Source: an uncultured PS1 clade bacterium
GTDB taxonomy: Bacteria > Pseudomonadota > Alphaproteobacteria > MED-G09
Assembly: GCA_902626605.1 (NCBI GenBank)
Contig: CACOFZ010000001.1
Location: 35,881 to 99,880 of the forward strand
Length of the DNA: 64,000 bases
Direction: 5' to 3'
In this document: positions 4,451 to 13,248 of the stretch, piece after piece
How positions within the stretch are numbered: the stretch's first letter is position 1
How the letters are laid out: every line of letters begins with the position of its first letter
The notes under the pieces: generated by a model
What the model was told of the DNA's origin: nothing
Databases searched by the model: none
The model's input: the letters and a program-made list of their open reading frames with translations, nothing else
Program-made: the position numbers and the translations under genes

Positions 4451-5883
4451 TGAGTAATGATGCTTTAAATATTCATTGGTTTAGACAAGATCTTCGCTTA
4501 GAGGATAATCCATCACTCTGCGAGGCTATAAGTAAGGGTCGTGTACTTCCAATTTATATACTTGATGATATAAATTCAGCTAAAGATAAACTCGGCTCTG
4601 CTAGTAGATGGTGGCTCCATCATTCATTGGTTAGTCTTAATAAAAGTCTTGAAGGTAGACTATCTATCTATAGTGGAGATGCTTTAGAGATAATTAAAGA
4701 TATTACAAAAAAGCATAATATAAGTAGCGTTAGTTGGAATAGATGTTACGAACCTTGGAGAATAAATAGAGATAAGAAAATCAAAATTGAGCTTGAAAAA
4801 AGTGGGGTTGAGGTAAATACCTTCAATGGCTCTTTGCTCTGGGAACCGTTTAATATTCTTAAAAGTGACGGTACGCCTTATAGGGTTTTTAGTCCTTATT
4901 ACAGAAAAGGCTGTTTAAATGCTCCTCCTCCCAGAAAACCTCTAGATAAACCAGATTTAGGTTCGTTAATTGATGTTACGGAACAATCATTGTCTGTTAA
5001 TGATTTAGATTTAATTCCTAAAATAAAATGGTTTGATCAAATGGAAAACCTATGGGTCCCCGGAGAAGATGGCGCTATAAAAAAATTACATGAATTTCTT
5101 GATAATGGTTTACTCGGTTATAAGGAGGGTAGAAACTTTCCTTCGCAGAAAAACGTATCACAACTTTCACCTCATATTCATTTGGGAGAAATTTCACCAA
5201 ACAAAGTTTGGTATTCTGCTCAGCTAAAGGAGAGTGTAGATGGCATTGAAAAAGATTTAGCTCATTTTTTAAGCGAACTTGGTTGGCGTGAGTTTTCCTA
5301 TAATCTTCTTTATCATTTTCCTTCGCTTCCTAGAGAAAATCTTCAAAAGAAATTTGATAATTTTCCTTGGCAAAAAAACGAAAAATTTTCAGAAAAATGG
5401 AAAAAAGGTCTAACTGGTTATCCAATAGTCGATGCTGGAATGAGAGAATTATGGCAAACAGGCTATATGCACAATAGAGTCAGAATGATAGTTGGCTCAT
5501 TTCTTGTCAAAAACCTCTTACTTCATTGGCATGAAGGGGAAGAGTGGTTTTGGGATTGTCTCATCGATGCTGATTTAGCAAGTAATAGCGCAAGCTGGCA
5601 ATGGGTAGCAGGTTCTGGTGCAGATGCAGCTCCATATTTTAGAATTTTTAATCCTATCAGCCAGGGTATAAAGTTTGATCCTGAGGGGGAATATACCAAG
5701 AAATTTTTGCCAGAACTAAAGGATTTGCCAATTAAATATCTTTACAATCCGTGGGAGGCACCCGCTGATATTTTAGAGCAAGCTAATGTTAAGCTTGGCG
5801 AAAATTATCCTGAACCAATTGTTGATTTAAAAGAGTCTCGGGAGAAAGCTCTAAATGCTTTCGATCAAATTAGAATTAAATAA
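4450..5883 (+). CDS. phrB: Deoxyribodipyrimidine (CPD) photolyase
   Basis: WFRQDLRLEDNP, SQLSPHIHLGEISP, WREF, TGYPIVDAGMRELWQTGYMHNRVRM, APYFRIFNP; start placed at the ATG overlapping the upstream TAA. Confidence 0.95.
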   Translation: MSNDALNIHWFRQDLRLEDNPSLCEAISKGRVLPIYILDDINSAKDKLGSASRWWLHHSLVSLNKSLEGRLSIYSGDALEIIKDITKKHNISSVSWNRCYEPWRINRDKKIKIELEKSGVEVNTFNGSLLWEPFNILKSDGTPYRVFSPYYRKGCLNAPPPRKPLDKPDLGSLIDVTEQSLSVNDLDLIPKIKWFDQMENLWVPGEDGAIKKLHEFLDNGLLGYKEGRNFPSQKNVSQLSPHIHLGEISPNKVWYSAQLKESVDGIEKDLAHFLSELGWREFSYNLLYHFPSLPRENLQKKFDNFPWQKNEKFSEKWKKGLTGYPIVDAGMRELWQTGYMHNRVRMIVGSFLVKNLLLHWHEGEEWFWDCLIDADLASNSASWQWVAGSGADAAPYFRIFNPISQGIKFDPEGEYTKKFLPELKDLPIKYLYNPWEAPADILEQANVKLGENYPEPIVDLKESREKALNAFDQIRIK

Positions 5884-6364
5884 TATACATATCAGCGTAT
5901 ATACCATTTTCAGATGATGATAAGTTTAGGACATCATTTATTCCAAAAGTTTTTGCAAATTCTGAAAAAGTTAAATCTTGACCTGGTGTCCCATCAACCT
6001 TGTTTCCACCAACATTATAAGTAAAACTATCTGCTTTACTAATTGTGATCTCTCTTCCATTCTCAAGCGTAAGACGAGCAGCATTTTTAGTAAACAATGT
6101 TTTATCAATATATGTATTAGATGGAATTTGAATAGTATTAGTACCCTCTGTATCAGTAATTGAAACCTTGCCTTTTTCCGGTAAGAGTTGGGAAACGAAA
6201 TACGTATCGTCACCTTTTAATCCTCTGTAGGTTTTTGCCTGTCCATCAAGAATAATAATATTATCGCCATCATTAAAATTAAGTGTACCTGACAAAACAT
6301 CTTTAGTATGGGCCTTTAAAGTATTTTTAGAGTCATCAAGAGAAGTCGATAACGAATATTTTAA
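5876..6364 (-). repeat. Copy 1 of 489-nt C-terminal module (LKY...DMYII*)
   Basis: Gap-free alignment to 7422..7910 and 10345..10833; about three quarters of residues identical by manual count. Confidence 0.9.
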
Positions 6365-11328: not shown

Positions 11329-13248
11329 TTTTTTAAGTTCATAATGAATAAATGAAGATGTTGACTCAGTTTTATCGCTATTAGCAGAGTTTTCGAAAAC
11401 TATATATTCTATTTTATTATCTTCATCAAAATCGCCCCAAGCATAGGGCTTGCCTCTAATTTGTTCAACCCCAACTTCTTTGATAAAAAATCGAGACAAA
11501 CCATCATTTATATAGAGCAACGGCGTTTCTGAGCTTCTTGCTCCTACAATATCCAAATGTCCATCATTATTTATATCTATGATTTGCCATGGATCAATCC
11601 ATGTTAACCTCCCGTTATACGCATCTTTATAGGCATCATTAGAAATACTGTCGGTTATATCTTTAAAATTTCCTAATCCATCATTTTGATTAATTTGAAG
11701 ATAATATCCTCCGTAGTAAGGTTCGTATCTTGTCCAGACGGTTACAAAATCCAAGTCATTGTCACTATCAAAATCAGCAATGAGAGTTTCTAAGTGCATT
11801 TGATTATCAGGACCATAAATTGAATCAGGCATTTCAATCATATTATCTTCAGTGAAATTTCCATCATTGTTTATAAACAATTTACTTGATGCACTCCCAT
11901 GTCCAAATCCAACTAGTAAATCGTTATAGCCGTCATTATTCGCATCAAATAATGCAGAATCAAGATGCTTATTTTTTGCTATTCCACCATTTATATGATC
12001 GGTTTTTTCTATATTTGTAAGTGGCCATTGATGTATTTTTTTGTAAATATCTTGGTTATTTAGTTCGAATAAACCGTCTGAATTTTGTAATAATTCATAT
12101 CCTTCTATATCTGAAGCACCTGAATAAGATCCTATTTTTCCAATATAAATATCATCTAATCCATCTCCATTTATATCCCCAACAGCTATTGAGTGAGCGT
12201 TTTCAGCTAAAGGAAAATCTTCTGTTGAGTCGGGCAATGTAGGAAAAATATCTATCGGGTCTATTCGATTTTCAATATTCTGTGTTAAGCGTAATTGTGA
12301 ATAGGGCTTAAGGCTCAGATCTTTGACACCTGAAGGATTATAGACATTGGCGGTAAATACCGCCTCTGTCTCTGTAGCTTTTAGAAAAATTGACTTAGAT
12401 CTTCCAGAGGCATTCGCTATGGGCATATATGAATTTATATTTTCATTATATTCTAATTCTCCATCTCTAACAGTTAGTGCAATGAAGGATGTATATGTAG
12501 AATAATCGCCAACTTGAGCATATCCCTTTGCCATTGGTAAAATAACGTCTTTAATTCCATCAAGATCAATATCAAATAAAAAAGGTTTTGATGGCGACCA
12601 CCCTATTAATTGCGGAGGATTGGTAACACCCGCATAAGTATATTCTTCTGTTAGGGTATTATCAGTAAAACTATAAATAACTTTTATTTCTTCGGATTGA
12701 ATATTATTTGTAAGATATGATGTATCAATTATTTTATCATCATCCATAAATTCAATATATCTTCCGCCGACGATAATATCTTTAAATTGAGGGCCTATCA
12801 CATGGATCTCTTCACCAACAAGAGATATTGTGTAATCCTCTGAATTTCCTGCCGGGTATGATACTTTGTCATCACCACCGCCCATATAAAGAGTATTATC
12901 ACCACCGATTGCAAAATATTTTTCGTATTTAGATGTACCGTAAAAAATATCTCCTTTACCACTGCCATGAATTGTTTCAACTCCAGAAAGTTGATCACGT
13001 GTTCCATATCCATCGTCAGACCATCCCTCCTTTAGGTTTATAGTCGCACCCTCATTACCTCGCCAAAGGAGGTAGGCGGTATTTTTACCTGAGATATTAT
13101 CATTACCTGGACCTGAATTTATTGTATGCTGGGATTCGGCATTTATAACCGTATCATCTCCTTCTCCAGGTAGAATAGCAGTTACATCACTTGGTAATTC
13201 TGATGCATCAATAAAATCATCTTCATCTGTGCCATTATAATCAGCCAT
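10345..13248 (-). CDS. Large secreted FG-GAP/VCBS-repeat + RTX-like protein with shared C-terminal module (paralog B)
   Basis: GDINGDGLDD, DANNDGYND, ADFDSDNDLD, DINNDGHLD; GGAGNDIIDGGKGAD; same overall architecture as 7422..10283. Confidence 0.85.
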   Translation of the reverse strand: MADYNGTDEDDFIDASELPSDVTAILPGEGDDTVINAESQHTINSGPGNDNISGKNTAYLLWRGNEGATINLKEGWSDDGYGTRDQLSGVETIHGSGKGDIFYGTSKYEKYFAIGGDNTLYMGGGDDKVSYPAGNSEDYTISLVGEEIHVIGPQFKDIIVGGRYIEFMDDDKIIDTSYLTNNIQSEEIKVIYSFTDNTLTEEYTYAGVTNPPQLIGWSPSKPFLFDIDLDGIKDVILPMAKGYAQVGDYSTYTSFIALTVRDGELEYNENINSYMPIANASGRSKSIFLKATETEAVFTANVYNPSGVKDLSLKPYSQLRLTQNIENRIDPIDIFPTLPDSTEDFPLAENAHSIAVGDINGDGLDDIYIGKIGSYSGASDIEGYELLQNSDGLFELNNQDIYKKIHQWPLTNIEKTDHINGGIAKNKHLDSALFDANNDGYNDLLVGFGHGSASSKLFINNDGNFTEDNMIEMPDSIYGPDNQMHLETLIADFDSDNDLDFVTVWTRYEPYYGGYYLQINQNDGLGNFKDITDSISNDAYKDAYNGRLTWIDPWQIIDINNDGHLDIVGARSSETPLLYINDGLSRFFIKEVGVEQIRGKPYAWGDFDEDNKIEYIVFENSANSDKTESTSSFIHYELKKEIGTGPDFVNTADQGIPGFNEKYYLNENSSAKEAVDAGTYATGLEHYLAEGKEAGLKTFAPFTKVHGYSGDDTIILREGDETAFGYAGKDTIEGGAGNDIIDGGKGADTAIYRDSSSAYTLKANDDGTVSVTHTSPSEGFTDEGSDTLTSIEKMQFSDKTLSKTSLKYQLSETVDTSENILSAHTEDVLSGTLNFNKGDNIIILDGQGKTYRGLEGNDTYFVSQLLPKNGKVSITDTEGSNIIQIPSNTYVDKSLFTKNAARLTLEDEREITISGADKFSYNVGGNITDGTKGTDLTFTEFAEVFGVYDILNSSGAQTGEISDMYII

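Follow-up and report, generated by a model that had tools for sequence, protein, structure and literature searches.

A portable beta-roll module, possibly a surface tether, shared by exported proteins of the marine PS1/OCS116 family

Introduction

Why should three adjacent genes with different cargo share one and the same C-terminal end? This question is raised by a 64,000-nt stretch of an uncultured PS1 clade bacterium (the window; assembly GCA_902626605.1, contig CACOFZ010000001.1, positions 35,881 to 99,880), in which a putative protease and two FG-GAP proteins close with a conserved block. A first-pass annotation of the sequence proposed that this block is a folded domain outside any named family, acting as a dedicated secretion tag and/or a cell-surface anchor. 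The analysis described here covers the three genes, the predicted fold of the block, its distribution and its possible partners. The 162-aa block is most likely a portable extracellular tethering domain fused to exported PS1/OCS116 proteins.

Three adjacent genes with a common end

The features of the locus, in window coordinates, are as follows.

5876..7396, minus strand: gene 1, a 506-aa, Cys-free, acidic metzincin-type protease ending in the module (ORF list, composition)
6896..6928, minus strand: HEMGHALGLEH zinc-binding motif, gene 1 aa 157-167 (regular expression on the translation)
6818..6832, minus strand: SVMEY, a Met-turn-like motif with Tyr, gene 1 aa 189-193 (regular expression on the translation)
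5876..6364, minus strand: module copy 1, 162 aa plus stop, ending in DMYII (ORFs, alignment)
7422..10283, minus strand: gene 2, 953 aa, FG-GAP propeller, short RTX stretch and module (ORF list, Pfam)
8622..9215, minus strand: FG-GAP/FG-GAP_3 repeats, gene 2 about aa 357-554, best stretches only (Pfam)
8079..8174, minus strand: canonical RTX nonapeptides, gene 2 aa 704-735, PF00353 (Pfam)
7839..7910, minus strand: N-terminal extension of module copy 2, 24 aa, LKYQLS...DVL (alignment, model)
7491..7838, minus strand: core of module copy 2, block aa 25-140 (alignment, model)
7422..7490, minus strand: tail of module copy 2, block aa 141-162, ending in DLYII plus stop (model, survey of protein ends)
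10345..13248, minus strand: gene 3, 967 aa, FG-GAP propeller, RTX and module, a paralogue of gene 2 (ORF list, Pfam)
11743..12195, minus strand: FG-GAP repeats, gene 3 about aa 352-502 (Pfam)
11002..11097, minus strand: RTX nonapeptides, gene 3 aa 718-749, PF00353 (Pfam)
10345..10833, minus strand: module copy 3, 162 aa plus stop, ending in DMYII (ORFs, alignment)

Open reading frames and alignment confirm the initial description of three adjacent minus-strand genes with collinear, gap-free 162-aa ends. The last 174 residues of the three proteins align without any gap, and each 489-nt block consists of 486 coding bases and a stop codon. The cargo had also been read correctly as a zinc metalloprotease and two FG-GAP proteins, as seen from the HEMGHALGLEH motif and the Pfam FG-GAP matches. 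Gene 1 matches Peptidase_M10 and Reprolysin, both weakly and under the cut-off, and a search of PDB sequences with the protease returned no match; its SVMEY motif may correspond to the Met-turn of serralysins and astacins. Genes 2 and 3 match FG-GAP_3/FG-GAP and contain one PF00353 RTX stretch apiece. All three proteins lack Cys and are strongly acidic in composition. No hydrophobic N-terminal stretch was seen in their first 50 aa (maximum Kyte-Doolittle(12) at most 0.75), which, as a crude check made without a signal-peptide predictor, agrees with the reported absence of signal peptides.

Over 174 columns, the block of the protease shares 70% identity with that of either FG-GAP protein (74% over 162 aa), while the two FG-GAP blocks are 92.6% identical to each other; upstream of the block, genes 2 and 3 are 54% identical. 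A DNA repeat family lies at the same three places (300 nt; the outer copies are 66% and 89% identical to the middle one). When the protease gene is compared with the FG-GAP genes, the block shows saturation at synonymous sites (pS 0.75) but a dN of about 0.2, which indicates that the block is under purifying selection. Judged from these comparisons, its similarity is neither chance nor just recent duplication. In the FG-GAP paralogues, dS over the last ~300 codons (RTX part and block) is 0.3-0.6 versus more than 1.5 upstream, suggesting recent exchange or gene conversion between the two copies on top of selection.

The core of the module (block aa 25-140) is the portion common to copies at the C-terminus and copies at Met1, and carries the conserved motifs TYRGLxGDDTY and IxDTEGxNxIQ. 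In the alignment, the 24-aa N-terminal extension is found in C-terminal-type copies only; it is confidently placed in the structural model. Each block has one GxxGxDxU match.

A capped beta-roll outside named families

The AlphaFold2 model of the module (pLDDT 90, pTM 0.85) supports the claim of a folded domain. Apart from one short helix the model is all-beta; it forms a capped beta-roll whose last strand (residues 171-173 of 174) comes from the block tail. It comes closest in structure to RTX blocks IV-V of CyaA (6sus_A, Z 9.6, rmsd 3.0, 112 residues aligned), followed by lymphostatin (9euv, Z 9.3), LipA (2qua_A, Z 8.8) and 9p6c_A (Z 8.6); a Foldseek search with the model gave nothing at E <=1e-3. 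The module is thus predicted to fold as a parallel beta-roll closed by a C-terminal cap, within the RTX superfamily. The fold class and the single GxxGxDxU turn suggest that it may bind Ca2+ or fold in a Ca2+-dependent manner.

At the sequence level, the module has no match in Pfam, NCBIfam or PDB sequences. NCBIfam scans of the three window proteins (E <=0.1) leave the block uncovered. PF00353 is absent from the block scanned alone, even up to E 10, its matches sitting upstream in genes 2 and 3, and PF08548 does not detect the module in Pfam scans. NCBIfam scans of the 286-aa, 427-aa and 627-aa proteins found no T1SS C-terminal target or sorting model at E <=1e-5. The domain is therefore without a named family, as had been proposed. 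The further claim that it is undescribed holds in that no characterised Pfam domain matches it; its architecture is not wholly new, because the fold belongs to the RTX beta-roll superfamily.

The module resembles RTX blocks (CyaA block V, residues 1529-1681, and the C-terminal domains of serralysin and LipA; Z 9.6, 8.8 and 8.6) in its predicted fold, in its one GxxGxDxU turn and in its position just before an acidic-hydrophobic C-terminal end. Unlike them, it has no tandem nonapeptides, is missed by PF00353 and PF08548, and is an autonomous unit of ~135 aa, found at Met1 as well and on proteins whose N-termini look like signal peptides.

This likeness raises an alternative that appears unlikely, namely that the module serves solely as a cassette for folding and secretion. 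Being a diverged RTX block with its own C-cap, it would fold from C to N, driven by Ca2+, and so ratchet export, its conservation reflecting folding and transporter recognition without a tethering role. Supporting this, the capped RTX block V of CyaA heads the structural matches (Z 9.6 and 8.6), the block of the window proteins comes after canonical RTX repeats and ends in an acidic-hydrophobic motif, and every PF00353-bearing ORF of the genome, three in all, has a module. For CyaA 1529-1681, passages of PMC6891781 describe a required C-cap and a 'Brownian ratchet'. However, a C-terminal folding nucleus would be senseless at Met1, the last part to pass through a type I channel, and the module is often found there, as described below.

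Distribution and architectures

A profile search matched the module in 868 cluster representatives. It is present in all 25 of the 25 PS1/OCS116 family genomes, and related proteins are frequent in marine metagenomes. The module is thus neither confined to the three window genes nor limited to their cargo. Among the best 150 of the 868 representatives, 37 have a single C-terminal copy, 36 a single copy at Met1 and four a single internal copy, while 73 have two or three modules, with linkers of 12-45 aa in 67/74 cases. Strictly C-terminal placement, as the three window genes had suggested, is therefore not the rule.

Half of the module proteins in the genome itself (3/6) begin with the module core: a 286-aa protein, a 427-aa protein and a 2062-aa RTX giant. 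Cargo that follows the module here includes non-RTX proteins, one of them cupredoxin-like, which also speaks against a pure folding cassette. One Rhodoferax MAG has 42 module matches, and 4/7 of the two-module ORFs inspected in Rhodoferax have signal-peptide-like (Sec) N-termini, as judged by eye; the module's occurrence on such proteins is likewise at odds with the cassette. Giants of the N-terminal type are also found in Accumulibacter and Rhodoferax.

Pfam scans of 67 of the best 150 representatives bear out the idea of varied cargo on one module, with FG-GAP, Peptidase_M10, cyclophilin, Calx-beta, Big_5, BACON, Lcl_C, cadherin-like, PPC and BNR as partners; among the best stretches listed, none overlaps a module. 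Several of these (BACON, BNR/sortilin-like, Calx-beta, Big_5, cadherin-like, proteases) are typical of degradative or adhesive exoproteins. The module might then bind an external polysaccharide, particle or prey surface and target enzymes or the giant in the manner of a CBM. The adjacent module pairs near C-termini would fit an arrangement familiar from binding modules. Such a role is nevertheless improbable: no binding-module fold is among the structural matches, and a ligand domain at Met1 of the giant would point the wrong way, toward the cell, because in T1SS giants of known topology (LapA, MpIBP) the N-terminus is the cell-proximal end.

Export route

The window proteins, acidic, Cys-free and lacking an evident signal peptide, would be exported unfolded via one type I system. 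The genome encodes one clear T1SS operon (G000:C1:122397-126445). Its 570-aa ABC protein scores 603 bits against TIGR03375 (cut-off 693), aligns to this profile from position 130 and comprises ABC_membrane and ABC_tran only, with no N-terminal C39-like domain in the domain scan; its HlyD reaches 202.7, short of the 208.65 cut-off.

Co-occurrence with T1SS genes is seen in this genome and is patchy in the family, where an ABC gene was found in just 12/25 assemblies and in 4/8 of those at least 90% complete. In four genomes that are 90-96% complete and encode 2-11 modules, neither a T1SS ABC nor a HlyD was clearly seen. Their module proteins still resemble T1SS substrates, and an unassembled island is a plausible explanation for the missing genes.

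The idea of a dedicated secretion tag is not supported. The module occurs at Met1, in adjacent pairs and on Rhodoferax proteins with Sec-like N-termini, and the Met1 copies sit on proteins that mostly have acidic-hydrophobic C-termini of their own; the module is therefore most likely not the tag. An acidic-hydrophobic C-terminal motif was reportedly recognised as a type I secretion signal by Ghigo and Wandersman in 1994. Among the best 150 of 868 representatives, 36/37 C-terminal-type proteins have an acidic residue and then hydrophobic ones at their very end, and the C-termini of Met1-type proteins are mostly acidic-hydrophobic. The short end D[LM]YII is likely the T1SS signal, as a candidate from sequence. 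The transporter would recognise this extreme C-terminus (...SD[LM]YII) rather than the whole block, since Met1-type proteins have similar ends without a nearby module.

The giant and surface tethering

The 2062-aa giant adjoins a methyltransferase gene, two GT4 genes, rmlCBDA and the HlyD/ABC/TolC operon. Giant, GT4 and rml genes lie together in all four relatives' loci fetched, with a T1SS inside the fetched stretch in three of the four. The giant was seen in 8/25 family assemblies (ORFs of at least 1600 aa). Compared with an orthologue of the same genus, its module is 88% identical and the rest 27-45%; for an orthologue of another genus the values are 78% and 35-65%. This conservation, the gene neighbourhood and the module on every PF00353-bearing ORF of the genome favour the giant as a hub for module proteins, whereas its detection in 8/25 assemblies and the patchy T1SS count against that.

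Tethering of some kind, whether module to module or to one shared envelope receptor, is on balance the favoured explanation. The surface-anchor, or modular display, half of the original proposal is in this respect favoured by the evidence, as an inference. The block would fold after leaving the cell and hold the enzyme on the surface, where it is predicted to pair face to face with the module at the start of the giant.

Docking between modules is, taken by itself, a tentative proposal that draws on complex prediction. For the giant module with the gene 2 module, the median ipSAE was 0.86 (0.79, 0.86, 0.88), with partner pLDDT of 88-91 and runs agreeing in at least 95% of contacts; the best control reached 0.01. 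The ipSAE mark was reached by 58/80 solved complexes and 2/110 mismatched pairs, a rough calibration because the alignments were own-made. Equivalent residues on both chains (offset 24) form the interface, which is therefore homotypic in the model. However, the predicted interface appears no better conserved than the rest of the module, which counts against docking: across 73 single-module copies, mean column entropy is 1.42 at the interface versus 1.44 elsewhere, and 44% of randomly drawn residue sets score as low. Modelling of an adjacent Rhodoferax module pair gave no confident inter-module arrangement (pTM 0.56, mean pLDDT 76, linker below 50). As ipSAE expresses model confidence, the docked face may in full proteins pack against a neighbouring domain.

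Alternatively, the module may bind an envelope component, such as a rhamnose-containing O-antigen or capsule, rather than other modules. Giant and enzymes would then be held on one glycan, as RsaA is by its N-terminal domain, which according to passages of PMC6978808 is alpha-helical and anchors to O-antigen in a Ca2+-dependent manner. The sugar-synthesis genes kept beside the giant in 4/4 loci are consistent with such a receptor, as are the conservation of the module in a giant that elsewhere diverges fast and its presence on proteins irrespective of export route. Yet no lectin or carbohydrate-binding fold is among the structural matches, the adjoining GT genes might just as well glycosylate the giant, and the complex prediction points to a protein partner. 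Binding to a common receptor is a possibility that we regard as doubtful.

Should module-to-module docking hold, a wider scheme of enzyme display can be envisaged, although it is rather speculative: self-pairing beta-roll modules would dock exoenzymes, by whichever route exported, on one giant RTX scaffold per genome that has the module at residue 1. The clients, no more certain than the scheme, would include proteases, FG-GAP propellers, cupredoxin-like proteins and a cyclophilin, with more than 20 in a Rhodoferax genome. In the PS1 genome, the 'X' domain of the 286-aa module-X protein is 62% identical to the last repeat of a lipoprotein encoded directly upstream of the giant; as a second shared domain, it may close a chain that links the scaffold to the outer membrane.

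Comparison with known systems

The closest analogue is RsaA/Sap of Caulobacter crescentus, although the fold differs. Passages of a review describe Sap as an RTX metalloprotease that is associated with the S-layer and resembles the N-terminus of RsaA in its C-terminal half, both proteins being acidic and Cys-free, as are the PS1 window proteins. In both systems, a metzincin-type protease shares its C-terminal domain with the N-terminus of a large T1SS-type RTX surface protein, and T1SS and sugar-synthesis genes adjoin the gene of the large protein (RsaDEF and O-antigen genes in Caulobacter). The domain itself is a different one: the PS1 module is predicted to be an all-beta capped roll, unlike the helical RsaA N-terminus. 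A profile search of PDB sequences with the module found no RsaA chain up to E 1, and RsaA appears among the structural matches only with the beta-roll of its C-terminal part (5n8p, residues 851-1003, Z 5.5). The PS1 module also differs in occurring on many cargo types, in several copies per genome and at either end or in pairs. Unlike in Caulobacter, no S-layer is known for PS1, and listings and abstracts of the literature contained no report of a PS1/OCS116 S-layer or surface fibrils.

Other systems share single aspects. SLH and cell-wall-binding modules are common to the main surface protein and many enzymes, at either end and often in tandem. The placement of the PS1 module recalls that of SLH modules in Gram-positive S-layer proteins and exoenzymes; however, the host is Gram-negative and neither the window proteins nor the block match PF00395. 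If the docking prediction is right, one large scaffold and enzymes with a small Ca2+-type docking module would resemble cohesin-dockerin, except that the predicted pairing is homotypic and the modelled fold unrelated. Retention of the LapA type differs in that the PS1 genome (93% complete) has no match to the LapG-type periplasmic protease PF06035 at E <=0.01 and its ABC protein has no C39-like domain.

Significance

The heterotrophic PS1/OCS116 bacteria are abundant in the ocean and have streamlined genomes of ~1.3 Mb; each of the 25 family genomes searched devotes several genes to the module. About 870 protein clusters without a name for it could join one curated domain family. If tethering is true, the module would represent a compact, export-route-independent domain of ~135-160 aa for surface display in Gram-negative bacteria. 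Free-living cells would then retain proteases and other exoenzymes on their surface rather than lose them to sea water, which would bear on the breakdown of dissolved and particulate organic matter.

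The array and its shared C-terminal block

Three adjacent genes end in one shared block:

5876-7396, minus strand: gene 1, ORF of 506 aa
7422-10283, minus strand: gene 2, ORF of 953 aa
10345-13248, minus strand: gene 3, ORF of 967 aa

The final 174 residues of the three products align without a gap, and the same three sites were recovered by a DNA repeat finder, confirming the collinear C-terminal block described in the first-pass annotation. Over this 162-aa block (the module), the gene 1 copy is 74% identical to each of the other two, which share 92.6% identity with one another. 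The cargo assignments were also reproduced. Gene 1 encodes the protease motif HEMGHALGLEH together with SVMEY, with sub-threshold metzincin matches only in Pfam, while genes 2 and 3 encode FG-GAP repeats and a single short canonical RTX stretch each. No hydrophobic N-terminus was found in any of the three proteins, all of which are very acidic and lack Cys.

The protease gene and a plus-strand photolyase-like ORF (4423-5883) share the last 8 bases of their 3' ends (5876-5883). Apart from this overlap the array is compact, its genes separated by 25, 61 and 4 bases. A tRNA, 23S rRNA, 5S rRNA and second tRNA (160-3642) lie directly upstream of its neighbourhood, and a SAM_alpha riboswitch (alphaproteobacterial SAM riboswitch) is found at 27685-27765. 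The assembly comprises 35 contigs (1.29 Mb, GC ~32%), and the nearest public loci come from PS1-clade and OCS116 single-cell and metagenome genomes. Scanning 5600-16000 for promoters and terminators was not informative: 49 promoter-like sites were found where 50.2 were expected, and 8 terminator-like sites where 5.1 were expected. Sixteen short metatranscriptome contigs (127-364 nt, 90-100% alike) match parts of all three genes. They are small, come from two marine runs of one study and may reflect DNA carry-over, and we treat them as weak evidence that does not establish expression.

Between the protease and FG-GAP genes, synonymous sites in the block are saturated (pS 0.75) and dN is ~0.2, so that its conservation there reflects selection rather than recent copying. 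A plain recent duplication limited to these three genes, the alternative raised in the first-pass annotation, is rejected on these saturated sites and on the many other cargoes found with the module. The two FG-GAP paralogues differ from one another unevenly, with dS of 0.3-0.6 in the last ~300 codons (RTX part and module) and above 1.5 in the propeller parts upstream. The dS comparison suggests gene conversion or recent exchange of 3' ends between genes 2 and 3, in the following segments:

7422-8300 and 10345-11250: low-dS 3' ends of the FG-GAP paralogues

An uncurated domain with many partners

Neither Pfam nor NCBIfam holds a model for the block, in keeping with the first-pass annotation, in which the domain was not recognised as a named family. 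Pfam matches of the three blocks alone (E up to 10) are noise (RnlA_toxin, PUA_4 and Lock_Gag1-like, all at E ~0.1), and searching PDB sequences with the profile yielded chance matches only (E >=0.045). The nearest neighbours in the protein Atlas are unnamed clusters. RTX-related clusters there (HCBP_related, RTX_C) scored 0.94-0.95 with few features in common (131-144), and so point no further than to a shared superfamily.

A profile search of the same genome (G000) returned the three window copies and four more matches, three of which have the module core at the initiator Met (Met1-type), giving at least seven module-bearing genes:

L004:1039-1899, minus strand: Met1-type module protein of 286 aa
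L005:568-1851, minus strand: Met1-type module protein of 427 aa
Met1-type module protein of 2062 aa (the giant), with 11 PF00353 stretches
G000:C12:1-96: seventh module copy, truncated to a short piece by the end of its contig

The core common to both types spans block residues 25 to ~140. In C-terminal-type copies it is preceded by a conserved 24-residue lead-in and followed by a tail with D[LM]YII at its end. The 427-aa protein has two CxxHxxxM motifs and no Pfam or NCBIfam match, and we read it as putatively cupredoxin-like. Near-identical architectures occur on contigs labelled as OM43 and Gammaproteobacteria MAGs (L071, L061), which could reflect transfer or mis-binning.

Among 1.84 billion cluster representatives, 868 match the module at E <=1e-3, 667 at 1e-10 and 191 at 1e-30. 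The best 150 of the 868, some of them fragments from short metagenome contigs, carry a single C-terminal module in 37 cases, a single Met1 module in 36, a single internal module in 4 and two or three modules in 73, with 67 of 74 linkers just 12-45 residues long. All but one of the 37 with a single C-terminal module (36/37) terminate with an acidic residue and then hydrophobic ones. In the 67 of the best 150 that were analysed with Pfam, no family covers a module, and the partner domains (FG-GAP, Peptidase_M10, M10_C, RTX, Calx-beta, Big_5, BACON, Lcl_C, cadherin-like, PPC, BNR and cyclophilin) read, by family assignment, as a catalogue of extracellular domains. This range of partners agrees with the proposal that different cargo is grafted onto one module. 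Source names are limited to 'hypothetical', 'FG-GAP-like repeat-containing' and 'Ca2+-binding RTX toxin-like'. A stand-alone 138-aa module protein (P0027) was left out as evidence because its contig is only 597 nt long.

Predicted fold

Modelled with AlphaFold2 from a 40-row alignment, the C-terminal 174 residues of gene 2 reached a mean pLDDT of 90 and a pTM of 0.85, so the folded domain anticipated from sequence conservation is upheld on the predicted model. Short strands make up the first half, followed by longer strands and one helix, and the final YII is itself a strand of the fold. Foldseek returned no PDB match at E <=1e-3. An exhaustive structural aligner gave the following matches, the best of which have Z values only moderately above its stated background of 7-8:

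CyaA RTX blocks IV-V: Z 9.6, rmsd 3.0, 112 residues aligned
Lymphostatin: Z 9.3
Serratia LipA: Z 8.8
CyaA block V: Z 8.6
RsaA beta-roll part: Z 5.5

We read the modelled domain as a probable RTX-type beta-roll with a cap, in agreement with the one GxxGxDxU turn that each block contains. For CyaA 1529-1681, a C-cap is described as necessary, with C-to-N folding acting as a ratchet for type I export (PMC6891781).

Distribution across genomes

The module was found in all 25 genomes of the family, with 1-11 matches each, and in 0 of 199 sampled genomes from other alphaproteobacterial families at E <=1e-8. Outside the PS1/OCS116 family the module is patchy rather than absent: 42 matches come from a Rhodoferax MAG, 6 from an Accumulibacter genome and a single one from a Thiotrichaceae MAG. 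The array described in the first-pass annotation is real, and the module is more general than proposed there, being widespread and found at either protein end.

The Rhodoferax MAG (G224, 4.9 Mb; for example, loci L104-L111) encodes one 1912-aa Met1-type giant, while the rest are mostly adjacent pairs near the C-terminus. By eye, four of seven paired-module ORFs inspected have Sec-signal-peptide-like N-termini and two are uncertain; one of the seven is without a signal peptide and ends ...ESGMLII. The paired-module proteins mostly have ...SGSANFVVSRP-like C-terminal tails, a conserved element that might serve in further sorting or anchoring.

Probable export signal and the type I secretion locus

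An acidic-hydrophobic C-terminal motif serves proteases of this T1SS class. The block as a whole had been proposed as a dedicated secretion tag and/or cell-surface anchor, and the first of these roles is not supported. Met1-type proteins mostly have acidic-hydrophobic C-termini of their own, far from the module (...AADFLMV, ...ISSDLIIV, ...ADINLV), with the exception of the 427-aa protein, which ends ...SSGYDI. The module also occurs on the Rhodoferax proteins with signal-peptide-like N-termini, and a C-terminal folding nucleus would have no reason to lie at the end that is exported last. Taken together, these points indicate that the export signal would most simply be the short tail. Type I secretion signals are described as ~60 residues long and unprocessed (PMC3034196).

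The sole clear T1SS of the genome lies outside the window, in a surface-protein island that also encodes the giant:

G000:C1:107146-126445 (L091): surface-protein island
G000:C1:122397-126445: HlyD-ABC-TolC operon

The operon encodes HlyD (325 aa), an ABC protein that lacks a C39-like domain (570 aa) and a TolC-like protein (453 aa). The island runs from a 627-aa lipoprotein-like gene through the giant, a methyltransferase, two GT4 genes and rmlC/B/D/A to HlyD-ABC-TolC on the opposite strand. In relatives, the giant, GT4 and rml genes are kept in 4/4 loci and the T1SS lies within the examined stretch in 3/4. LapA-type retention was rejected, since LapG was not found and the ABC protein lacks a C39-like domain.

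PF00353 repeats are confined to three ORFs of the genome, namely the giant, gene 2 and gene 3, each of which carries the module. The module is the best-conserved part of the giant, being 88% identical in a same-genus orthologue (27-45% elsewhere in the protein) and 78% identical in an orthologue from another genus (35-65% elsewhere).

A second shared domain, 'X', was also observed:

L004:1039-1899, minus strand: X-domain carrier, the 286-aa protein
L091:147-2030, plus strand: X-domain carrier, the lipoprotein directly upstream of the giant

Over its final 131 residues, the 286-aa protein shares 62% identity with the last repeat of the lipoprotein, which has at least two further weaker X copies and an (AEETP)n linker. 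X is a candidate adaptor that would connect an outer-membrane lipoprotein to the module network.

Across the family, the T1SS ABC gene was found in only 12/25 assemblies and 4/8 near-complete ones, and no clear T1SS was found in four near-complete module-bearing genomes. In one of these four, G022, the six module proteins inspected look exactly like T1SS substrates. The giant was found in 8/25 assemblies, all within the 12 with the T1SS ABC gene, suggesting that the island is either variable or poorly assembled.

Proposed tethering and docking of modules

The module likely has a tethering role, whether through pairing of the giant's module with that of an enzyme or through a common envelope receptor. 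As in the RsaA/Sap system of Caulobacter, the conserved N-terminal module of a big surface protein recurs on enzymes, here as one giant and an enzyme set. The RsaA N-terminal domain is described as binding O-antigen in a Ca2+-dependent manner and contacting its neighbours (PMC6978808). Unlike the module, that anchoring domain is alpha-helical, so the likeness is one of architecture, not of descent.

Predicted as a complex, the first 150 residues of the giant and the gene 2 block scored 0.86 in median ipSAE (individual runs 0.79, 0.86 and 0.88), judged by a mark that 58/80 solved complexes and 2/110 mismatched pairs reach, a calibration that holds only roughly here because own alignments were used. 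The best of three docking controls had an ipSAE of 0.01; the partners had pLDDT values of 88-91, and the runs agreed in their contacts. The predicted interface involves equivalent residues of both modules (2-18, 32-38, 57-58 and 97-102 of the giant; 26-43, 56-60, 81 and 121-125 of the block, plus part of the lead-in).

Several observations count against docking. The predicted interface is not more conserved than the remaining module, and when a natural pair of adjacent modules was modelled, their relative placement came out undefined (pTM 0.56), giving no verdict on packing. The T1SS ABC gene and the giant are patchy, and near-complete module genomes occur without a clear T1SS. Literature searches, in the parts of sources available, turned up no surface layer in the PS1/OCS116 clade, and nothing on these proteins in work on the clade with type I secretion, S-layers or RTX. 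On balance, specific homotypic docking, as modelled, is plausible but less likely than not.

In summary, the module is a widespread domain without a curated model, predicted to form a self-capped beta-roll and used at both N- and C-termini of exported proteins. As a family it is new, its fold class is known, and its deployment has known analogues in RsaA/Sap and SLH modules.
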